From positions 7,570-71,569 of the forward strand of contig JAQVSI010000001.1 in NCBI GenBank assembly GCA_028700625.1: a stretch of 64,000 nucleotides of DNA. The letters run 5' to 3'. The notes below the pieces were generated by a model that was given only the letters and a program-made list of their open reading frames with translations, did no database searches and was not told the DNA's origin. Source of the stretch: Candidatus Shapirobacteria bacterium (lineage in GTDB: Bacteria; Patescibacteriota; Microgenomatia; UBA12405). A program made the position numbers and the translations under genes. Position 1 is the stretch's first letter. Each line of letters opens with the position of its first letter. This document shows positions 1,963-48,282 of this stretch, piece by piece.

Positions 1963-3483
1963 TTATTTAACCAAACCATATTTTTGTTTTAATTGACTAA
2001 TTCCACTAATCAAAGTTTTAACAACATCTTCACTCTTTTCATTTTTTAAATTAATACCATTTATTGCATCACCAAAATATTTTTGCATTTCTGTATTAAC
2101 CCCATCATCACCAGTATTTGAAGCCAAATACCAACTACTGGCATTATTAGCTGTATCTACAAAAGGCTTAATTTTAGTATTACTGCTTATTTTTTCCACC
2201 ATACTTTTTCGAGGATAAATTTGTCCAAAACTTCTAATTAAAGAATCGGCTTGATACATTTTTTCCAATCCTTCAGTTGAAGATAAATATTCCAAAAATT
2301 TCCAAGCTTCTTTCTGATATTTACTTTTGTTATTTATTCCCTCTGTCCAATAAGTCGACCAGTGAATATTTGTTAATTCAGCCTCTGCTCCAATTTTGTC
2401 AGTTGGGGTTGATGCATTTGTTGGTAGTTGAGGTAAACTAGTCACTTGAAAATCTAAATTAGGATTTAAGGTTTGAATATCAAAAATTCTCCATGAAGGC
2501 CCAAAATAAAAACCAAGATTTCCACTAGCAAAATATTGAGTTGAATTAGGCAAACTTTCATCCCAAACCTTGTCACTAGTTTTAAATAAAGTATAAAAAT
2601 CTAATACATCTTTTAATTTTTTTTCATTATCAGCAGATAAAGTGTTTAAATCAACTCCGTTTTGTTTCATCATCAAACCCACAATATCACTCCAATGATC
2701 CACATTTTCCACTGTTCCGATTGCTGCTCCAGCCACTTTAATTTTTCCATCAGCGTCTCTTTCAGTTATTTTAACAGCCGATTTTTTCAAATCCCACCAA
2801 TTATTAGGAACCTTAACTTGAGCTTTCTCTAACAAGGAAGGGTTATAGAACATCACTAATCCGTCATACATCAGTGGCACTGATAAATATTGACCATTTT
2901 CTTTTAAATCGCTTTTATAAACATCAAAAAAGTCATTTTCTAGTCCAATAGCTGTGACCACTTCAGTAGGAACAGCAGCTAAATTGTCCCTAAACATAGG
3001 CAACCAAGTATTATGGATTCTAAAAATATCTGGAACATCTTCAGTTTCTCCGCTTTTAGCTAATCTGCCATTAAGTCTTCCAGCATAACCATTTAATTGG
3101 TTTCTTTTATAATTTATTTTTATGTTTGGATTTTTGCTTTCAAAATCGGCAATTATTCCATTCATCACACTTTCGTCTTCCCACAACCCCCAATAATTCA
3201 AAGTAACAAGTTTACTAGAATCACTTCCTTTAATAAGATTAAAAACAATAATTGCTATTATAAAAAATATTATTCCTGATCCCATCAATATAAATAGTTT
3301 TTTATGACTCTTTTTAACTATTGGAACATTAATAGGTGGAACACTTTGAGAAATATTTGTTGGTGCCTCACTCGTTTGATCATTAACCAAAGGAATACTC
3401 TGTTCAATATTTTCGTTTTCTGTTTCCGTTTTAAAAACCACTTTTCTTGGTGGTAACGGTGATTTTATATCTTCAAGACTCAC
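1963..3483 (-). CDS. Membrane-anchored extracellular solute-binding protein (family 1 sugar SBP-like), orphan (no permease/ATPase adjacent)
   Basis: N-terminal Pro-rich cytoplasmic segment plus single TM, then ~400 aa domain with LNYWGLWEDE..NPNIKINY pattern typical of SBP_bac_1. Confidence 0.45.
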   Translation of the reverse strand: MSLEDIKSPLPPRKVVFKTETENENIEQSIPLVNDQTSEAPTNISQSVPPINVPIVKKSHKKLFILMGSGIIFFIIAIIVFNLIKGSDSSKLVTLNYWGLWEDESVMNGIIADFESKNPNIKINYKRNQLNGYAGRLNGRLAKSGETEDVPDIFRIHNTWLPMFRDNLAAVPTEVVTAIGLENDFFDVYKSDLKENGQYLSVPLMYDGLVMFYNPSLLEKAQVKVPNNWWDLKKSAVKITERDADGKIKVAGAAIGTVENVDHWSDIVGLMMKQNGVDLNTLSADNEKKLKDVLDFYTLFKTSDKVWDESLPNSTQYFASGNLGFYFGPSWRIFDIQTLNPNLDFQVTSLPQLPTNASTPTDKIGAEAELTNIHWSTYWTEGINNKSKYQKEAWKFLEYLSSTEGLEKMYQADSLIRSFGQIYPRKSMVEKISSNTKIKPFVDTANNASSWYLASNTGDDGVNTEMQKYFGDAINGINLKNEKSEDVVKTLISGISQLKQKYGLVK

Positions 3484-3546
3484 ATATATATCATACCCTA
3501 AATATTCATCTCTTGGCTATAATTAATTATTAGAAATTAAAGAAAG

Positions 3547-3587
3547 TCGCCCTGTCAAGGGAGATGCCCGAAGGGCAGAGGGTTTTA
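3547..3587. repeat. Double-hairpin palindromic element, copy 1 (intergenic, upstream of ZIP gene): gtcgCCCTGTCAAGGGAGatgCCCGaagGGCagaGGGTTTT
   Basis: Sequence family recurring about 10 times in the window (see findings). Confidence 0.75.
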
Positions 3588-3596
3588 ATTAAATTC

Positions 3597-4340
3597 ATGC
3601 AATCTTTATATTTATCTCTTCTAGCAGTTTTAATTGTCAGTTTAGTTTCCCTTTCTGGCATTGCTTTATTTTTTTTAAATAAAAAAACTAGTCAAAAAAT
3701 AAATCTTCTTCTTGTTAGTTTTGCCATTGGTGCTCTTTTAGGGGACACTTTTATTCATCTTTTGCCCGAAGCTTTTCAATCACTAAATTCCTTAACTGTT
3801 TCTTTTCTAACTATCGTCGGTTTATTACTTTTTTTTGTTTTGGAAAAAATTCTTCGTTGGCATCATTGTCATGAAATTAATTGTAATGAAAGTAAACATC
3901 TTATTGTTTTAAATACTGTCGGAGACACCATTCATAATCTAATTGATGGTATGCTCATTGCGGCCAGTTTTGCCGTCAATTTTAAATTGGGAATCGTTAC
4001 CAGCATTGCCGTTCTTCTTCATGAAATTCCCCAAGAAATAGGCGATTTTGCTATTTTAATTCATGGTGGATTATCAGCCAAAAAAGCTGTTTTATATAAT
4101 TTATTTACTGCCACTTCAGCTTTTTTAGGTGTCTTTTTATTTTTCTTTTTGGGCTCTAAAATTTCCTCTTTATCTCTATATTTACTTCCAATCACTGCCG
4201 GTGCTTTCATTTATTTGTCAGCCAGCGATCTAATTCCCGAGCTTCATCGCCACGATCAAAAACTTTCCCATTCTCTTTTGCAACTAATCTTTATAATTCT
4301 CGGAGTCGCTCTCATGTCCCTTTTGGCTTTTTTAGAATAA
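3597..4340 (+). CDS. ZIP family metal (Zn/Fe) transporter
   Basis: LLHEIPQEIGDFAIL signature of ZIP/ZupT; multiple TM helices; His-rich HHCHE loop. Start placed at ATG 3597 because the upstream Met lies inside the repeat element. Confidence 0.7.
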   Translation: MQSLYLSLLAVLIVSLVSLSGIALFFLNKKTSQKINLLLVSFAIGALLGDTFIHLLPEAFQSLNSLTVSFLTIVGLLLFFVLEKILRWHHCHEINCNESKHLIVLNTVGDTIHNLIDGMLIAASFAVNFKLGIVTSIAVLLHEIPQEIGDFAILIHGGLSAKKAVLYNLFTATSAFLGVFLFFFLGSKISSLSLYLLPITAGAFIYLSASDLIPELHRHDQKLSHSLLQLIFIILGVALMSLLAFLE

Positions 4341-4401
4341 GATCATTGTTTTTCTATAATTTAGGTGTATCTTACTGATACATTATAATCATTTAAATAA
4401 A

Positions 4402-4794
4402 ATGAAAGAAAGTTTTGATGTTGAAAAAAATAGAAGTAAGGATATTTCTAAAAATGAGAAATTATTAATAGATTCTGGCGTAATCGATCTATTTGAAAAT
4501 AAAATTAAATCCCAAAAGACACTAAATGGAGGGGATCTAGAAATAAAAAGAACTCACGATTTTTCAAGTGTTATTTTTAATTGGAATTTTAAAAGTACTA
4601 GGTGTGTTTTTAATAAAGGAGAAGATTGTATTATTAATACCTGTAAAACTGTAATCGCAAAAATTAAGGAAGAAGGTTTATTTATCGGTTATTTAGGACG
4701 ACATAGTTTAGAAAATTTTGAAAAAGTCGAATCAGGAAATTTAGAAGAATTAACAAATAGGGCTATAAAATTGGCAGAAAGAAATAGTTTTTAG
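4402..4794 (+). CDS. Hypothetical protein (130 aa)
   Basis: ORF only; no recognisable motif. Confidence 0.3.
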   Translation: MKESFDVEKNRSKDISKNEKLLIDSGVIDLFENKIKSQKTLNGGDLEIKRTHDFSSVIFNWNFKSTRCVFNKGEDCIINTCKTVIAKIKEEGLFIGYLGRHSLENFEKVESGNLEELTNRAIKLAERNSF

Positions 4795-15790: not shown

Positions 15791-15797
15791 TTTTAGG

Positions 15798-15871
15798 TGG
15801 GTATGCATGGACTCGAACCATGGACCCCCGACTTATAAGATCGGTGCTCTAACCAACTGAGCTACATACCC
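15798..15871 (-). tRNA. tRNA-Ile (anticodon UAU), cloverleaf folded by hand; CCA not encoded
   Basis: Reverse complement GGGTATGTAGCTCAGTTGGTTAGAGCACCGATCTTATAAGTCGGGGGTCCATGGTTCGAGTCCATGCATACCC: 7-bp acceptor, D-arm, anticodon loop CTTATAA, T-loop TTCGAGT. Confidence 0.7.
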
Positions 15872-15875
15872 TAAG

Positions 15876-15949
15876 TAGCAGGAGTGGGACTCGAACCCAC
15901 GACCTCAGCGTTATGAATGCTGTGCTCTAACCGGCTGAGCTACCCTGCC
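15876..15949 (-). tRNA. tRNA with anticodon CAU (Met elongator or lysidine Ile2)
   Basis: Reverse complement GGCAGGGTAGCTCAGCCGGTTAGAGCACAGCATTCATAACGCTGAGGTCGTGGGTTCGAGTCCCACTCCTGCT; anticodon loop TTCATAA; G-U pairs at the acceptor ends. Confidence 0.65.
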
Positions 15950-15985
15950 AAAGTATATGAATTATACCAAAATTTATAAAGATTT

Positions 15986-16035
15986 CTCCCTTTCATCAAA
16001 GAGAGATGCCCCGCAACAGCGGGGAGAGGGATTTA
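15986..16035. repeat. Palindromic element, copy 4 (between tRNAs): TCTCCCTTTCATCAAAGAGAGATGCCCCGCAACAGCGGGGAGAGGGATTT
   Basis: Repeat family member. Confidence 0.65.
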
Positions 16036-16083
16036 AGACAAAAAACAAAAAAGCCGCCTAATTAAAGACAGCCCCTTTGTTTG

Positions 16084-16153
16084 TTGCGGGGCTAGGAGTT
16101 GAACCTAGCCTGTGAGATTATGAGCCTCACGTGCAGCCGTACACTACCCCGCA
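16084..16153 (-). tRNA. tRNA with anticodon CAU (70 nt, short D-arm, 4-nt variable loop; fMet or Met/Ile2)
   Basis: Reverse complement TGCGGGGTAGTGTACGGCTGCACGTGAGGCTCATAATCTCACAGGCTAGGTTCAACTCCTAGCCCCGCAA; perfect 7-bp acceptor, anticodon loop CTCATAA. Confidence 0.5.
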
Positions 16154-27786: not shown

Positions 27787-27990
27787 AATTATAGCATTCT
27801 TAGATTAAAACCTAAATTGACTTTTTCATTCTAGTTCTAAATCCGTTCCACCTCTCGAGCACGAATTAATAATCATAACTCCTCCAATTATTCATAATTG
27901 ATGGAGTTCAACTCCACCAATTAGACTTTTGGTGTTAAGAATAAATGTTTTGATGCCAAGAAAGAATATGGTGGTTCTTGTAACGAAAGT

Positions 27991-28233
27991 TTGATTAGTC
28001 TTTTAGAAGATGAAAACAGAGGTTTTAGAGCTAGAAATTCAGCTATTTGGGCTTTAGGTCAATTGGGTAATCCAAATTCTTTACCAACTCTACAAAAATT
28101 TTATACTGGAAATATTCCCGACAGAGAACCATTAGATAAAACTATTAGTCAATATGAATTAAAAAAAGCCATCAACCTTACTAGCGGCGGCAAAAACATT
28201 ACGGCAATTTTTTGGAGATATAATCTAGATTAA
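27991..28233 (+). CDS. Short HEAT/PBS-lyase-repeat-like fragment (possible gene remnant)
   Basis: ARNSAIWALGQLGNPNSLPTLQKF resembles one HEAT-like repeat; too short for a full repeat protein. Confidence 0.2.
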   Translation: MISLLEDENRGFRARNSAIWALGQLGNPNSLPTLQKFYTGNIPDREPLDKTISQYELKKAINLTSGGKNITAIFWRYNLD

Positions 28234-28367
28234 ATTAAAATTAATACCAACTCTATTCTTTTCTTCAAGTAGTATTTTAGTATTCATTCTAGTTTTCAGA
28301 TATTTTTCAGATTGATTTCTTAATATTGATTATTAACAATTAATTAATAACAGGGGGTGAGATTAAA

Positions 28368-29056: not shown

Positions 29057-30443
29057 TTAACTTCCTTTTATTACAAAGTAGCTAAAAAGTCCAAAAAATA
29101 AAATTACTAGTAATAAAATTATTTTTCTCCACCAAGATGGTTTTAGTTCTTTGGCCAGAGTTTTTTGGTTTAACCATAAAACTGCGATGCTATAAATAAA
29201 CATTGTTATTGCATTTAAAAAAGCACTAATTACCACTAATTGTAGAGGTTCTTTAAAACCAACCAATAGAATTATTATTCCTAAAATTATTTGTGTCCAT
29301 AAAAAAGCAAAATAAAAATAAGGTAGTTTATTTGCTTTAAATTTCTTTTGATTTAAAATAATCAAATTTTCAGAGTTAATTCTACTAGTTGCATCCATTA
29401 CTGACAATTGAGTTGAAAACAACATCATGGCTACCAATATTAGAAAAAATGCCCCAATTGTCGGTGCTGTTGATATTGAAATACTTTGTGCTTCTTTAAA
29501 CAAAAAATTAATACCAGACACCCCATCGGTTTTATTGTAAACAGTACTAAAAGCCAATAAACTAAGCAAAATTATTGTTGTTGCTCCAGTAAGCCAAAAG
29601 ACTAATAAATGTTCTAGATTTATTTTTTTCCACCATTCTTTAAATATTTTTAAATTTTCTTTATTAATCGAGAAAGTTTTTCCTTCTAAACTAAATTTTT
29701 ACATTTTTTTTAAGTAAGCTAGTAATTTTTCCTCCATATTTACCCATTCCATATTCTTTTTCTCTTATATAAAAAGATTGAGCTAAGTTTAAATTCCCCC
29801 CGGCTCCAGAATAAGCAAATGCTCCCAGAAAAGTTATTAGAGGTAAAGCTGCTGGTATTAACCAAAAATCATTTCCCTTGCCTATTAATCCTTGAGCTAA
29901 ATTTTGCCAATCATTTCCTTTACTTAGATAAAATGTTAACAAAAATATAAAAGGTACGCCGATAAAAATTAAGAGTTTTTGAATTTTTTCCTGTGTTTTA
30001 TAAGCCACCTTACTTAAACTTAAAATTAGGCCTATGGTTATTAACATTAATATAGCTATTAAGTTAGTGTTTTTAAACCCAAAAATATTAGCTGTTAATA
30101 CTGCTGAAGATAAAATTATTCCTGGCCACATCCAAGGAATAATGGTCGATAAAATAAACCAAATGGGTGAAATAATTTTTAATTTTCTTGCCAAACCAAC
30201 AAACACACTTTCTCCAGTAACAAGAGTATATCTTTCAATTTCCATATTTATAAAAAATTGAAAAGTAATTCCAATTATTGCTGCCCAAACAATTCCTAAT
30301 CCAAAATTAGCCGCTAGATAAGGCCACATTATTAATTCTCCGCTACCCAAACCCATTCCCAATAAGACAAAACTTGGCCCAATCATTTTTTTTAAAATGG
30401 GAGATTTTGGTAATTTAGCTTTACCGATTTCACTAAGTATCAT
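29057..30443 (-). pseudogene. Nramp-related divalent metal transporter-like gene split into two overlapping-frame ORFs (29691-30443 and 29057-29569 plus upstream extension); frameshift near 29690
   Basis: N-terminal ORF resembles Nramp TM1-TM6 (GPSFVLLGMGLGSGELIMWPY.., ..TGESV); C-terminal ORF has ~5 further TMs; the second frame opens exactly where the first stops. Confidence 0.4.
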
Positions 30444-30485
30444 ACAATATTTATATCAAAAAAAAGACATTACATATTTATTGGA

Positions 30486-31085
30486 TTGATTAATCTTTAT
30501 AAAGTAAAATTATTAATAATGACTCCTAATAATAATCATCTTTGGAAGTATAAAAACTTAATAATACTTTTCTTTGGTATTATTTTGGCTATTATTTTAT
30601 CTCAAGTAGAATCTTTTCATTCTTTTTTACTTCACCTAAACAACTTTGGTTATATTGGGGCCTTTATTGCCGGTATACTTTTTGTTTCCACTTTTACTGT
30701 TGCTACTAGTGCTTTAATTTTACTTACTCTTGCCGAAGTTTTATCCCCTATAGAAATTGCTCTAATTGCTGGTCTTGGTGCAGTAGTAGGTGATTTGTTA
30801 ATTTTTAATTTAATCAAAGATAATCTGTTTAATGAAATTAAGGAAATTTATAATAAAATTGACCAAAAAAACCATTTGAAAAAAATATTTTATTCCAAAT
30901 ATTTTAATTGGATGTTACCTGTTATCGGCGCCATTATCATTGCTTCACCACTTCCTGATGAAGTTGGTATTAGCCTAATGGGTTTATCAAAAATAAGTAC
31001 TCCTAAATTTATTTTTATTTCTTACATCTTAAATTCTATTGGCTTGTTTCTAATTATATCGGCATCAGTAGTTATTAAACCTTAA
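30486..31085 (+). CDS. Hypothetical membrane protein (199 aa)
   Basis: Hydrophobic segments only. Confidence 0.35.
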   Translation: MINLYKVKLLIMTPNNNHLWKYKNLIILFFGIILAIILSQVESFHSFLLHLNNFGYIGAFIAGILFVSTFTVATSALILLTLAEVLSPIEIALIAGLGAVVGDLLIFNLIKDNLFNEIKEIYNKIDQKNHLKKIFYSKYFNWMLPVIGAIIIASPLPDEVGISLMGLSKISTPKFIFISYILNSIGLFLIISASVVIKP

Positions 31086-31327
31086 TTTTAGACAAAACAA
31101 TTTCTGGTTTATTCCAAGACTGAAGTTTGTTTTGATATTTATTAATATTACGATTAAAACATTTTAGTAATTTGAATTACTAAGAAAGATAAACCGAAGT
31201 TACTGAATATTGAATCTTAAGGCTAATTCAAAAAAACCAATTATTTTTTAATTGAAGAAGTTTTAAGAGTATAATTAGATAATTATTTAATTAAGTTTAT
31301 TTTTAATATTTTAAAAATAAGGAAAAA

Positions 31328-31561
31328 ATGGTCACTAAAAAGAAAGAAAAAAACAGAGTTAATCCTTTTATTGCTGCCATAACAGGAGCTGTTATTGGAG
31401 CTGGTGTTGCTATTGCTAGTGTTATTTCTTTTAAAGACAAAAAGAATCGCGATAAAGTAAAAAAAGTTTTTATCGATGTTAAAGATAAAACTGAAACTTA
31501 TCTTAAACAAGCTGAAAATAAAGTAAAAAAGAAAAGAAAGGCCAAGAAAATAATTAAATAA
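31328..31561 (+). CDS. YtxH-like small membrane-anchored stress protein
   Basis: AAITGAVIGAGVAIASVISFKDKKNRDKV resembles the YtxH/DUF948 N-terminal motif; Lys-rich tail. Confidence 0.45.
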   Translation: MVTKKKEKNRVNPFIAAITGAVIGAGVAIASVISFKDKKNRDKVKKVFIDVKDKTETYLKQAENKVKKKRKAKKIIK

Positions 31562-31562
31562 T

Positions 31563-33026
31563 CTATCCTATTGCTACTATTTGTCTTAATTTAGGCAAAA
31601 ATATAGATGTATATTCAGCAAAGTCTTCTTTTTGAATTTCTCTTGATCCTGTCTCTCTAGCTGGTTCTCGTCCATGACCTAAAATAAAATTTTCTAATGA
31701 ATTTAAGTTAAATCTTTTGTAAAAATCGATTAATTCATGTCCACTAGCATGGCTACTATTACCATCAGCCCAAATTACTTCTGCAGTTTTTCTTTCTACT
31801 TTTCCATTTTCAATTTCTTTTATCATTTCTGCACCTCTAGTTCCTGGAACTTGAAAACAAGTAAGAATAAATGAATTATTAGGGTTTTGATTAAATTTAC
31901 CGCTTCTATAATTAACCGATCTCCCTCTAGTTACCATTCCACCACTAGCAAATACAATTGCTTTTTCTGAAGAATAAGCTAGATGTTCAACTAATAGTTT
32001 TGACTGTTCATGTGACTCAACTATAGTCAGATTTTTTATATTAAATCGACTCATACTATTTTCCTTAGTTTTATAAAAGCATGGATCATCACCATACCAA
32101 TTACTCATATAATCTGGACCTAAATCTTGATGAACTTTTAATACTTTTCTTGGCAACGGTGCATCCATGTAAAAATGATAATCAAGAAATTGACCCCTAC
32201 ATTCTTGATCATTGTGAAATATTTCCATTGTTGGTGCCAATCTGCCAGCTATAAGTGGCATCACCGAAACTCCACCTCTTTGTGCAGTTTTTGTTACTGC
32301 ATTAAATATATTAATCTCTCTTTCACTAAAAGAAACTGGATCTTTTTCGAAACAAGTTGATTCGGTTAATATCGTGTGAATTCTGCAGTCAGGGTATTTA
32401 CTGGAATATTCATTATAACCACCGCATGTCAATTGATTTGGTCTACCAATATCACCAGTAAATAAGGTATTTTTTTTAGTAACACCATCTTTAATTAATA
32501 CTGACACACTTCCGTTCATGTGGCCGTTTGGTATTAAAATAGCTGTTATTTTACCGTGACGACTTCCAATATCAATTTCTTCAAATGCTTCAATTATTTT
32601 CACTCGTTTTAAAATATCATTAACATCTTTCCTATTATAAAGTGGTTTTTTTTCCTTATCGCTTTCTTGAATTTTTACAGAGTCTTCCAACATTATTTTT
32701 GAAAGTTAAAATGTTTCTCTTGTAGTATAAACATTTGGAGTAAAACCATATTTAGCAATTAATGGAAATAATCCAATGTGATCAATATGGGCGTGAGTCA
32801 TAAAAAAATCTGATGTCCCTCGACAAATTTCACTTATATATTCAAGGTCTCTTAGTCTTCCTTTTTCAGATATTTCTTCAAATTTTCCTTGAAATTTCCC
32901 ATAATCAATTCCGATTTTATTATCTCCACGCTCGTAAATATGGCATGATCCAGTTACTAACCCTCCACTTCCGCCAAAAGATTCAACTGTGACATTATTT
33001 CTTTCGCAAGATTCTATTCTTTTCAT
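31563..33026 (-). pseudogene. Metallo-beta-lactamase-fold beta-CASP nuclease (RNase J/CPSF-like) interrupted by a single in-frame TAA (32706-32708); the two ORFs (32706-33026 and 31563-32693) are in the same frame
   Basis: N-terminal part carries THAHIDHIG (HxHxDH); downstream part carries TESTCF and HASGH beta-CASP motifs; only 4 codons including the stop separate them. Confidence 0.55.
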
Positions 33027-33174
33027 GATATTTTATTCAGTGTATCAATAACCTTATTAAATTATCTATAAGATAAATTTTACTTTTAACAATTTATCCC
33101 TAAAACAACATTTTATTTAAATTATTGTAATTAATTACAATTGGTGTCAAACTTAATTAGTTAAATTTAAAAAT

Positions 33175-33963
33175 ATGAAAAATAAAAATCTTTTTCTAAA
33201 AATCTTTGTTGCTGTTACTTATATAGGAATGGTTGTTGTTAATAGTTTGGCCAATATTATTCCTATTAATGGCGTAAAAACAGGACAAATTTCAGATTCA
33301 TATCAAAATTTATTTGCTCCATCTGGCTTAACTTTTTCTATTTGGAGTCTAATTTATTTTCTTCTTGCCGCCTATACTTTATATCAATTTGGACTTTTTC
33401 AAAAAAACAAAGGAATCAATAAAGATAAATTATTTAAAAAAATTGGAATTTATTTTTCTATCACTTCAATTACAAATATTTTTTGGATTTTTGCTTGGCA
33501 TTATAACTTTATTTTTATCTCAGTCTTGTTGATCGTCAATATTTTATTTTTCTTAATCAAAATTGCTGATATTTTAAACAAAGAAAAATTTTCTTTTAAA
33601 GAAAATTTATTTATAAAAACTCCCTTTAGTGTTTATTTTGGTTGGATAACTGTGGCCGTTATTGCTAATATAACCACTTTTTTAGTCAGTATAAACTGGG
33701 ACGGTTTTGGAATTTCTAATCAAATTTGGACTATTTTAATTCTTCTAATAGGAGCTGTTATTGGTATTTTAAGAATTTTAAAAGACAGAAATATTCCTTA
33801 TGGTCTAGTTTTAATTTGGGCCTACCTAGGCATTTTAATTAAACATAGTTCTCTCGATAAATTTGCCAATCGATATCCCAATATAATTGTTACTTTGATT
33901 ATTTGTATAGTTTTGTTTTCAGTTGCCGAATTCTCGATTTTATTCAACAAAAAAAGACTATAA
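33175..33963 (+). CDS. TspO/MBR-related tryptophan-rich membrane protein (long paralogue, 262 aa)
   Basis: Trp/aromatic-rich TM pattern (FAPSGLTFSIWSLIY.., FWIFAWHYNF, YFGWITVAVIAN) resembling TspO. Confidence 0.4.
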   Translation: MKNKNLFLKIFVAVTYIGMVVVNSLANIIPINGVKTGQISDSYQNLFAPSGLTFSIWSLIYFLLAAYTLYQFGLFQKNKGINKDKLFKKIGIYFSITSITNIFWIFAWHYNFIFISVLLIVNILFFLIKIADILNKEKFSFKENLFIKTPFSVYFGWITVAVIANITTFLVSINWDGFGISNQIWTILILLIGAVIGILRILKDRNIPYGLVLIWAYLGILIKHSSLDKFANRYPNIIVTLIICIVLFSVAEFSILFNKKRL

Positions 33964-33998
33964 TTCTAATTAGTTTAACTTATTAATTACCAGATTGT

Positions 33999-34397
33999 AT
34001 GAATAATACTCAAAGTTGGTATCAAAGTCTAATAAAACCATTCTGGGCCCCTCCAAGTTGGTTATTTGGGCCTACTTGGACAGTTTTATATATATTGATA
34101 TTTATTTCTTTTGGTTACGTTTTTTCTTTATTTTTCAAAGGTAAACTAACTTTTTTAGTTTCATTACCATTTATATTAAATATTTTCTTTAATATTATTT
34201 TTTCCCCCATTCAATTTGGTTTAAAAGACAACTTTTTAGCTTCAATAGATATTATTTTAATTTTATCTACTCTAATTTGGGCCATGTTTTCCATTTTTCC
34301 TCACGCAAAGTGGGTTACTTTTATAAATATTCCTTATTTGCTTTGGGTTTCTTTTGCCACAGTTCTACAAATAACAGTAACTTATTTTAATTGGTAA
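33999..34397 (+). CDS. tspO: TspO/MBR family protein (132 aa)
   Basis: WYQSLIKPFWAPPSWLFGPTWTVLYILI matches the TspO N-terminal signature. Confidence 0.6.
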   Translation: MNNTQSWYQSLIKPFWAPPSWLFGPTWTVLYILIFISFGYVFSLFFKGKLTFLVSLPFILNIFFNIIFSPIQFGLKDNFLASIDIILILSTLIWAMFSIFPHAKWVTFINIPYLLWVSFATVLQITVTYFNW

Positions 34398-34440
34398 TTT
34401 AATTTGAATTTATTGCTCCGATTTGTTAATATAACTGCTC

Positions 34441-34890
34441 ATGATCACAAAATTGGGCAAAGAAAATCTTGAAAAAGAAACAAAAAGCCTTCAAAAAGAA
34501 CTCGAAAGAACCTATAAACAGCGAAACGAAGCTGCTGCCGAAGGGGATTTAAAGGAAAATTCTGCCTATATCTTTATGGGTGAAAGAGCCGGAGTTCTTA
34601 GTTCTCAAATTTCTGAAGCCATGGACGACTTAAGGCAATCAATTGTTCAACCTGTTCCAACTCAATGTGAAACTATTTGTTTTGGCCACCAAGTTTCTGT
34701 TGTTTTTGAATCTGACAAAAAAAATTTAACTCTTACACTCGTTGGTAAAAATGATGCTCGTCTTAAAAAAGATTGGATTTCCATTAAAAGTCCAATAGGG
34801 GAAGCTCTTCTGGGTAAAAAGAAAAATGAGAAAGTTTTAGTCAATGATCAAATAATTACCATTAATGAAATTTCTGTTGGTGAAATTTAA
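34441..34890 (+). CDS. greA: Transcription elongation factor GreA
   Basis: N-terminal coiled-coil, EGDLKENSAY acidic tip motif, C-terminal FKBP-like domain. Confidence 0.8.
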   Translation: MITKLGKENLEKETKSLQKELERTYKQRNEAAAEGDLKENSAYIFMGERAGVLSSQISEAMDDLRQSIVQPVPTQCETICFGHQVSVVFESDKKNLTLTLVGKNDARLKKDWISIKSPIGEALLGKKKNEKVLVNDQIITINEISVGEI

Positions 34891-45931: not shown

Positions 45932-47662
45932 ATGACGTCAAACTTTTCCACTATAAAAATTGCTGGTCCTGCTGGTTCTGGCATTAAATCTGCCGGTCAA
46001 CTTTTTTCCAAATTTTTAATTGATCATAGTTTTAATTTGGTCGATTATAGTGAATATCCATCTCTGGTTCGTGGTGGTCACAATACTTATCAAATTACTT
46101 TTTCCGACGAAAAAGTTTTTTCCACTCATTTTAATGTGGATCTATTTTTTTCTGTCTATCCAAATCATTGGCAACAACACTTAGAAGAATTTACTAAAGA
46201 TACTTTAATTTTTTCTGATGAGGATTTCTCTAAAGTCAAAACTAAAGCTAAGTTTTTACGTCTGCCTTTAAAAGATATGGCCACTGAAGTTGGTAGTCTT
46301 TTAGTTGTTAATACACTTTGTCTAGGAGTAGCTGCTTATCTTTATGATTTAGATACTACTCTCATTAAAGATCTTATTTGTGAAACTTACGGTAAACACG
46401 GTGACTTAAACTGTAATGCTTTTAATATTGCTTATCAATATGCATTTAAAAACTTTTTTAAGTTTCAAATTAAAATAAAAAAACCAAGCAAAAAGATAAA
46501 AATGGGTTTTTATGACGGTAACGAAGCTTTTGGTTGGGGATTTATCAAGGGTGGTGGCATTTTTTATTCCGCTTATCCAATGACTCCAGCCACCGGTGCT
46601 CTCCATTTTTTGGCTGCCAAACAAACAGAATATAAATTAACAGTAATCCATCCAGAAGATGAAATTTCTTCAGCTAACATGGCTGCTGGTGCTGCTTTCA
46701 CTGGGGCTCGTAGTGCCACAGGCACTTCAGGTGGTGGTTTTGCTCTCATGAATGAAGCTATCAGTTTCTGTGGAATTACTGAAATTGGTATGGTTTATTA
46801 TTTAGTATCAAGACCAGGTCCAGCCACTGGCCTTCCAACGTGGACAAGTCAAGGAGATCTTCTTCATGCTATCTATTCTGGTCATGGTGAATTTCCCAAA
46901 GTTGTTCTTGCTCCAGGAGATCTCGATGAATCTTTTGAATTAAGCCATACTGCTCTTGATCTAGCTGCTCATCTCCAAACTCCAATAATAGTTTTAAGCG
47001 ATAAATTAATCGGTGAATCAAGTGGTAGTACTAATTATTTCCCAGAAATGGAAGTAAAAATTGATAAGGGTGAAATTCTAAATGAAATTGAAGATGAAGA
47101 TTATAAAAGATATGCTTTCACTAAAAACGGCATTTCTCCACTTTCTCTTCCAGGCACTCCAAATGGTGAATTTTTATCCAACAGCTATGAACATGACGAA
47201 TATGGTTTTGCCACAGAAGATGCTAATCTTTCAGAAAAAATGTCTAAAAAGAGAATGTTAAAAAATAAAGTTGCTTTAACTATTTGTCCAAAAGCTAATT
47301 TTTTTGGATCTAAAAAAGCCAAAAAATTAATTATTGCCTGGGGTTCTCCCAAAGGAGCTATTCTTGAAGCCTTAAAATTAATAGAAAATAAAGAAGATTT
47401 TGCTTTTTTACAATTAAAAACTCTCTGGCCAATTAATCCTGAAATTAAAACTATTATTAATGCTTTTAAAGAAATTATTGTTATAGAAAACAATGGTACT
47501 AGCCAACTAGTTACTCTTCTTAAATCTCAATTCGATTTTAATCCAACTAGAATAATCAATAAAAACAATGGCCGTCCTTTCTTTCCAGAAGAAATCATTA
47601 AATTATTAAAAAGTTATCCTGTCAAAGGAAATGCACGCAGGGCAGAGGGTTTAAAACTATGA
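45932..47662 (+). CDS. 2-oxoacid:ferredoxin oxidoreductase alpha subunit (fused gamma-alpha, KorA-like); C-terminal residues encoded by a repeat copy
   Basis: N-terminal gamma-like IKIAGPAGSGIKSAGQLF; alpha domain GNEAFGWGFIKGGGIFYSAYPMTPAT. Confidence 0.7.
   Translation: MTSNFSTIKIAGPAGSGIKSAGQLFSKFLIDHSFNLVDYSEYPSLVRGGHNTYQITFSDEKVFSTHFNVDLFFSVYPNHWQQHLEEFTKDTLIFSDEDFSKVKTKAKFLRLPLKDMATEVGSLLVVNTLCLGVAAYLYDLDTTLIKDLICETYGKHGDLNCNAFNIAYQYAFKNFFKFQIKIKKPSKKIKMGFYDGNEAFGWGFIKGGGIFYSAYPMTPATGALHFLAAKQTEYKLTVIHPEDEISSANMAAGAAFTGARSATGTSGGGFALMNEAISFCGITEIGMVYYLVSRPGPATGLPTWTSQGDLLHAIYSGHGEFPKVVLAPGDLDESFELSHTALDLAAHLQTPIIVLSDKLIGESSGSTNYFPEMEVKIDKGEILNEIEDEDYKRYAFTKNGISPLSLPGTPNGEFLSNSYEHDEYGFATEDANLSEKMSKKRMLKNKVALTICPKANFFGSKKAKKLIIAWGSPKGAILEALKLIENKEDFAFLQLKTLWPINPEIKTIINAFKEIIVIENNGTSQLVTLLKSQFDFNPTRIINKNNGRPFFPEEIIKLLKSYPVKGNARRAEGLKL
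47617..47656. repeat. Palindromic element, copy 10, forming the last ~13 codons of the oxidoreductase alpha subunit (..PVKGNARRAEGLKL*)
   Basis: TCCTGTCAAAGGAAATGCACGCAGGGCAGAGGGTTTAAAA. Confidence 0.65.
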
Positions 47663-48282
47663 ATATTAATTATCGCTCAAAAATTGTTCCCACTTAGTGT
47701 CCAGGTTGTCATAACTTTTTAGTTTTTTCAGCTATTCAAACTGCTTTTAATTCTCTTAATTTAAAATCTTCCGATGTTGTCATGAATTACGATATTGGTT
47801 GTGTTGGTAATATGGCTGATTTCTTTAAAACTTATGGTGTTCATACTCTTCATGGTCGATCTATTGCTGTCGCTATGGGTGAAAAATTAATCAATCCAAA
47901 TCTTATGGTTTGTGTTATTGCTGGTGATGGTGGTGCTTACGGTGAAGGTTTAAACCATTTAATCGCCGCTGCCAGGGCCAACATTGATATTAAAGTTTTT
48001 GTTTCTAATAATTTTCTTTACAGTTTAACCACTGGTCAGACCAGTCCTACCACTCCCAAAGGTGCTCGCACAAAATCAACTCCACTTGGTAATTTAAACG
48101 AACCAATCAATATAATAGAGTTACTCAAAACTATTAACCCTAATATTTTTGCCAAATCAGTCGATGCTAAAAATATTTCTGAAGTTACCAAAAGAATAAA
48201 AGAAGCTCTTGAATTTAAAGGCTTTGCTTTTGTTGAAACCCTCCAGGAATGTGTCGCTTTTGGTAAACAATTAAAAAGCTAA
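47659..48282 (+). pseudogene. 2-oxoacid:ferredoxin oxidoreductase beta (TPP-binding) subunit with an in-frame TAG at 47695-47697 replacing the conserved Trp of the WCPGCG motif
   Basis: ATG at 47659 overlaps the alpha stop (ATGA); reads MNINYRSKIVPT-TAG-CPGCHNF..; downstream GDGGAYGEGLNHLIAAARANIDIKVFVSNNFLYSLTTGQTSPTTPKG is the TPP-binding signature. Internal ATG at 47782 would give a truncated product. Confidence 0.55.

Follow-up and report, generated by a model that had tools for sequence, protein, structure and literature searches.

A private in-frame TAA in a beta-CASP nuclease gene of a Candidatus Shapirobacteria assembly

The question raised by this locus is why a gene for a beta-CASP metallo-beta-lactamase (MBL) nuclease, apparently complete in every other respect, is cut by one in-frame TAA in a metagenome-assembled genome (MAG) of a landfill Candidatus Shapirobacteria bacterium. 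A stop of this kind may reflect recoding or readthrough, an enzyme made as two chains, a recently broken allele or an error in the assembly. We address these possibilities using the 64,000-nucleotide stretch of DNA that holds the gene (hereafter the window), its homologs, and independent assemblies of the same species.

One colinear gene with a single internal stop

The span 31563-33026 on the minus strand translates as one colinear beta-CASP metallo-beta-lactamase gene of 487 codons, internal stop included and without a frameshift, in which the TAA at 32706-32708 (minus strand), codon 107, is the sole internal stop. Translation of this span thus bears out the preliminary description, which had reported a beta-CASP gene cut at this position by one in-frame TAA, with the halves in the same frame and no frameshift. 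Two details need adjustment: the description holds with the gene placed on the minus strand, and the two open reading frames (ORFs), given as four codons apart with TAA being one of the four, are indeed separated by a tiny gap, but one of five codons, since F106 is followed by TAA and L-S-K-I before M112.

The N-terminal ORF (32706-33026, of which the 106 codons occupy 32709-33026, minus strand) contains motif 1 as IDYG, with D41, and motif 2 as HAHIDH (32778-32795). After the TAA and the four sense codons, an ATG at 32693 opens the 376-aa C-terminal ORF (31563-32693, minus strand), which starts at Met112 (MLEDSV) and holds motif 3 (NGHMNGS), motif 4 (TGDIG) and motifs A (TESTCF), B (SSHASGH) and C (LGHG). 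The motifs previously assigned to the two ORFs, HxHxDH in the shorter and TESTCF and HASGH in the longer, are accordingly in place, and all catalytic motifs are intact across both halves: the four MBL motifs (D; HxHxDH; H; D), and a beta-CASP domain ahead of motif C with motifs A (D/E), B (H) and C (H). In the window copy the TAA parts motifs 1 and 2 from the remaining ones, so that the full set does not stand on a single polypeptide. The best promoter-like site, TTGACA-18-AATAAT at 33121-33150 (minus strand), which is a consensus match only (11/12), lies 5' of the gene's own ATG.

The two halves belong to one gene because the Pfam matches to Lactamase_B (residues 77-198) and Lactamase_B_6 (residues 60-180) both cross the stop, and because PDB and homolog alignments are gapless there. 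The gapless PDB sequence matches include Cas14 (E 9e-30), the archaeal CPSF PH1404 and Thermus TTHA0252 (E 4e-23), with E values of about 1e-23 to 1e-30 for TTHA0252, aCPSF1 and Cas14. Pfam Beta-Casp is matched at 2.7e-13 (50.9 bits, cut-off 27.7) and Lactamase_B scores over its cut-off, while RMMBL is matched weakly.

At NCBI the 376-aa ORF has an identical counterpart, protein P0001 of a Candidatus Shapirobacteria MAG, which is known from one contig only, of 72 kb. About 25 relatives, mostly from Shapirobacteria, share at least 38% identity with the gene, and every complete one among them is a single chain of 478-508 aa, colinear with the window gene; about 20 other relatives carry the gene intact. 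A protein-profile scan of GTDB representatives found relatives at 43% identity or less only, an exact DNA pattern from the window had no match among these representatives, and the gene neighbourhood varies among relatives. In a 24-sequence alignment D41, H78, H80, D82, H83, H169 and D192 are invariant, all of them being present in the window gene, and E222, H426 and H451 reach 90% conservation or more. In the AlphaFold model of a 78%-identical homolog (P0002; pLDDT 92), whose fold matches TTHA0252, Cas14, aCPSF1 and CPSF73, the residue aligned to codon 107 is residue 99, within helix 95-114 of the MBL domain; the stop thus falls inside a helix and not at a domain boundary.

Comparisons to characterized enzymes indicate that the gene encodes a standard single-chain beta-CASP RNase of the TTHA0252/CPSF73 type. 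With the stand-alone beta-CASP RNase TTHA0252 from the bacterium Thermus thermophilus (PDB 2DKF, 3IEK family) it shares the two-domain fold (Foldseek E 1e-31 and TMt 0.88 for the P0002 homolog), a sequence match over residues 18-437 at the E value given above, all seven motifs, a similar size and the lack of extra domains. It differs in that identity is only about 23%, the window copy is interrupted and RMMBL is weakly matched, and the Shapirobacteria clade is set off from TTHA0252 as a distinct subfamily (at least 38% identity inside, at most 29% outside). Cas14, the beta-CASP nuclease of type VII CRISPR-Cas (PDB 8YHD, 9J9E), is the best PDB sequence match and a top structural match, and the catalytic core is common to Cas14, archaeal aCPSF1/FttA, eukaryotic CPSF73/IntS11 and the window gene. 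In contrast to these proteins, the window gene comes without a CRISPR array, cas gene, KH domain or C-terminal extension, and its context is unconserved. A CRISPR link, considered on account of the Cas14 match, was rejected as no repeats or cas context occur near the gene; the resemblance is that of the general family and not of a type VII system.

Codon 107 and a second stop in other assemblies

The position aligned to codon 107 is Glu in the five closest homologs (TRETF-E-LSKIML), and at the DNA level the codon is GAA in the two closest species. The window TAA differs from GAA, the codon for Glu107, by one substitution, which is G to T in the coding direction and C to A at plus-strand position 32708. 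Searching with a degenerate DNA pattern around the site identified JGI contig Ga0172381_10057409, which matches window 31218-34258 at 99.9% identity and reads GAA at codon 107, and exact-product look-ups of neighbouring genes yielded further contigs. Same-species sequence comes from JGI 3300014204 (landfill leachate well LW1, 2016, Illumina HiSeq; PMC9723747), JGI 3300035208 (well LW1, 2017; bioRxiv 10.1101/2024.05.30.596742), the Logan per-run assemblies SRR22315503 and SRR18595299, and the ENA metagenome assembly ERZ27247350. All four samples that span the site, JGI 3300014204, JGI 3300035208, SRR22315503 and ERZ27247350, have GAA (C at plus-strand 32708), on same-species contigs that are 98.9-100% identical to the window, and a contig of the species spanning the site (L093) encodes an uninterrupted single polypeptide. 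Searches for the exact 376-aa and 106-aa products gave no second assembly with the TAA allele, and no other contig on record with the 106-aa product.

The most informative comparison is to SRR22315503, whose contigs are 100% identical to the window over 30248-34479 (4.2 kb) save for the stop, and which shares the strain markers of the window, namely the 752-bp segment at 30466-31217 and the alleles at 30445 and 31222. This comparison is the closest substitute for read-level verification, and it gives a sense codon. The preliminary description had named raw reads with a sense codon at this position as the observation that would speak against its reading, and GAA in independent assemblies of four other samples essentially amounts to it. 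The stop is present in the window and private to this assembly, and the ancestral codon is GAA.

The preliminary description had further pointed to an amber codon in an oxidoreductase beta subunit, which would make two interrupted genes in 64 kb, and this second case was recovered. The gamma and alpha subunits of a 2-oxoacid:ferredoxin oxidoreductase (OFOR) are fused in one gene (45932-47662, 576 aa), which is followed by the beta subunit (47659-48282, plus strand, 207 codons), in which a TAG at 47695-47697 (plus strand), codon 13, aligns with the Trp of DWCPGCGNF in the Sulfolobus enzyme. Two other same-species assemblies (L090 and L095) have TGG, the Trp codon of the WCPGC motif, at the amber site and an intact 207-aa gene, the TAG thus being a private G-to-A change (TGG to TAG). 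We note that at 207 aa the beta subunit is short compared to the 273-305 aa of solved enzymes, with the C-terminal region missing, and that this short form is the intact one in other assemblies too.

The other same-species assemblies cover 25.0 kb of the window, and the two stops are the only differences in gene structure found there. Defining a private site as one that differs from all of at least two other samples, we obtained eight candidates: two nonsense, three missense, two synonymous and one intergenic. At seven of these eight the window has A/T and the others G/C, a direction that fits the bias expected of a 30% GC genome; both stops are such GC-to-AT point changes. No private indels were detected against the Illumina contigs over 25 kb of homopolymer-rich sequence, and the window assembly therefore looks accurate rather than noisy. 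Stops arise from 5.1% of the possible single-base changes in the coding sequence of the window, and from 8.6% of those in the GC-to-AT direction, and the probability that at least two of eight private changes are nonsense is 0.06-0.15. An enrichment of nonsense changes among the private differences was accordingly rejected as not significant, the sampling having moreover been centred on the beta-CASP gene. Two stops in 64 kb are about what unselected private variation, or errors, of this density would give, and a special mechanism is therefore not required.

Purifying selection has acted on both halves of the gene. Pairwise omega is 0.16-0.18 among the window gene and its counterparts in two contigs of related species (L001 and L004; Nei-Gojobori), and calculated by branch it reaches 0.195 for the window, against 0.16 for both L001 and L004; an omega near 1 or multiple lesions, as relaxed selection would leave, are thus absent from the window gene, which has a single lesion. 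As omega is low and decay has not accumulated, the lesion is either very recent or not real.

Explanations for the stops

We propose that a single G-to-T change private to this assembly turned Glu107 into TAA, whereupon translation would end once 106 residues have been made, within the MBL domain's first long helix. A product re-initiated at Met112 would, judging from its sequence, be inactive: the MLEDSV product, singled out earlier as one that might retain the catalytic motifs, keeps motifs 3, 4, A, B and C and lacks motifs 1 and 2 (D41, H78, H80, D82, H83). In this family motifs 1 and 2 supply most zinc ligands, so the metal site could not form and no active enzyme would be expected from the downstream product alone. 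Relative to the intact orthologs the lesion is a disabling one, and TAA107 presumably abolishes function. The same account, a private point change, would apply to TGG-to-TAG in the OFOR beta subunit. We therefore lean towards a freshly broken loss-of-function allele, and away from recoding, readthrough or a designed split. Young nonsense pseudogenes and segregating loss-of-function alleles of bacteria are alike in having one disabling private point mutation with orthologs intact, and likewise in the absence of further decay marks and in the GC-to-AT direction. Deleterious changes are over-represented among very close strains. A private nonsense substitution is, in this sense, an ordinary event.

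Readings in which the stop is compatible with a working enzyme fare poorly. Reassignment, or an ochre suppressor tRNA reading both UAA and UAG, would keep both genes full length, and the two in-frame stops in otherwise intact genes would suit it, as would the C that follows the stop, a weak termination context in E. coli. We consider it extremely unlikely, given that TAA ends 41 of the 52 long ORFs in the window (TAG seven, TGA four), that only two in-frame stops occur in about 54 kb of coding sequence, TAA being in frame once in the window, and that neither is conserved even within the species; for TAA107, GAA stands in all four other samples as well as in the two closest species. TAA reassignment was rejected on terminator usage together with this lack of conservation. 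The window encodes four tRNAs, tRNA-Ile(UAU), two tRNA-Met and tRNA-Asn, with no suppressor among them, and at the stop the RNA folds no better than shuffles (z = -0.5), shows no stimulatory structure and matches no Rfam element. Known stop-codon reassignment and programmed readthrough (codes 4 and 25, TAG-recoded phages, Sec/Pyl) resemble this locus only in having an in-frame stop in a conserved gene, whereas here UAA is the main terminator, the stop is unconserved and does not recur across genes, and no decoding machinery was seen. The systematic readthrough envisaged earlier is not borne out, TAA being the dominant terminator, the stop private and the window devoid of a suppressor tRNA; a survey of in-frame stops, run on the 64-kb window, returned only the two known interrupted genes, with no third nonsense-split gene among same-frame ORF pairs in which neither part is shorter than 35 aa. 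The remaining same-frame pairs (1302, 5261, 22553, 25565, 36768, 8755 and others) were set aside as distinct neighbouring genes by Pfam. Somewhat less remote, though still very unlikely, is a functional split in which termination at the TAA is followed by re-initiation 12 nt downstream at the ATG at 32693 and the 106-aa and 376-aa chains assemble. The ATG sits four codons past the stop, the rest of the gene is intact, and the genes of this genome almost lack Shine-Dalgarno sequences, with A/T-rich leaders that resemble the sequence ahead of ATG 32693, where the lack of a Shine-Dalgarno sequence is accordingly uninformative. Against this, Met112 was already an internal residue of the ancestral protein and is shared by the closest intact homologs, the break lies within a helix of the MBL core and parts motifs 1 and 2 from 3, 4 and C, and there has been no time for adaptation. 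The suggestion that two-polypeptide enzymes might be normal in this lineage finds no counterpart either: no relative is cut at this site, nor is the split found elsewhere in the same species, the complete relatives at 38% identity or more are single ORFs, and the one split gene of a sister species (L004) is broken elsewhere, by a frameshift.

More serious is a consensus, assembly or polishing error, with the organism having GAA here and TGG in the OFOR beta subunit, which we regard as possible, if less probable than the broken allele. Both stops are unique to this assembly, the TAA is the sole difference from same-strain SRR22315503 contigs in 4.2 kb, and the private spectrum is like that of random GC-to-AT changes, at whose 8.6% stop yield two or more nonsense changes among eight have P = 0.15. 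Private changes that look unselected are what errors would produce too, and one stop strikes the OFOR beta subunit, a core component of fermentative metabolism where genomes are this small. Two knockouts in 64 kb of a streamlined genome, that of the OFOR beta subunit among them, exceed what purifying selection normally tolerates. Speaking for a real variant are the absence of private indels in 25 kb of AT-rich, homopolymer-rich sequence, the A/T direction of seven of the eight private changes, and the finding that the assembly of JGI 3300014204 bears its own nonsense codon in the same gene, i.e. such alleles do occur in assemblies of this species. Substitution errors are, in addition, rare in the consensus of short-read assemblies. 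On this evidence the variant is rather more probably real in the sampled population than a consensus error. Recurrent, selected inactivation, by which loss of the nuclease is advantageous or neutral in the clade and independent knockouts keep arising, is in our view unlikely. It draws on three different lesions in three assemblies (TAA107, TAA392 and a 1-nt deletion at about codon 357), and it is opposed by an omega of 0.16-0.20 on all three branches, indicating that the gene is maintained, by the roughly 20 other relatives with an intact gene, each lesion being seen in one assembly only, and by ascertainment bias, as the beta-CASP gene was sampled far deeper than any other. A still lower probability attaches to the more specific proposals that the nuclease is repeatedly knocked out in the clade because its loss is advantageous, e.g. 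in host/phage conflict, or that the strain tolerates UAA and UAG via a weak ochre suppressor.

The result is thus mainly a negative one: the two in-frame stops are private point changes in one MAG, and they give no pointer to a new genetic code, a readthrough signal or a split nuclease in Candidate Phyla Radiation bacteria. In practical terms, the 376-aa "MBL fold metallo-hydrolase" of this MAG at NCBI is a truncated product, the true protein of the species having 487 aa with Glu107, and comparing a MAG with assemblies obtained independently from the same population can take the place of verification on reads. The residual interest, which is small, concerns whether the nuclease undergoes repeated loss in the clade.

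Further lesions and strain variation at the locus

The JGI contig Ga0172381_10057409 (L086, 909-2084; 3300014204, LW1 2016) has a TAA at codon 392 of the gene, equivalent to window position 31853, where four other samples have CAA; this change and the window stop both convert TTT(G/C)AA to TTTTAA. In the closest sister species, represented by L004 (ENA ERZ27297473 k141_1735325; 81% aa identity), the gene, at 3030-4471 of the contig, is split into 358 and 123 aa by a 1-nt deletion that changes GGTGGAATG to GGT-GAATG and was seen on one contig only. Taken together with the window stop, these three independent lesions hint that the gene may be dispensable or repeatedly lost, which is taken as a lead only.

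A different kind of variation is found in JGI 3300035208, whose contigs (L091, L087, L092 and L094) switch at the motif-4 stretch (window 32436-32466) between the window type and P0008, a co-occurring relative whose aa identity is 53%. In L091 the N-terminal 193 aa are 100% identical to this relative and the C-terminus is identical to the window, and Logan contigs stop exactly at 32460. A recombinant allele was considered for L091 and rejected, since the reciprocal contig L087 in the same assembly and the Logan breaks at 32460 point to an assembly crossover; the conserved motif-4 stretch is probably where the assembly crossed over from one to the other of two coexisting Shapirobacteria, real recombination being less likely.

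The 752-bp segment (30466-31217), which includes a 199-aa membrane-protein ORF (30486-31085), is kept in SRR22315503 and swapped for about 190 bp of unrelated sequence in JGI 3300014204 and ERZ27247350, a strain-level indel or replacement polymorphism.

Window-wide, a Shine-Dalgarno-like motif is almost absent from gene starts, the leaders being just A/T-rich. The tRNA-Ile(UAU) and the two tRNA-Met(CAU) form a cluster at 15796-16153 (minus strand), a tRNA-Ile with a UAU anticodon being uncommon in bacteria. Finally, a 581-bp low-coding gap at 27787-28367, whose sole content is an 80-aa, TTG-initiated HEAT-repeat-like ORF (27991-28233), may represent a gene remnant.
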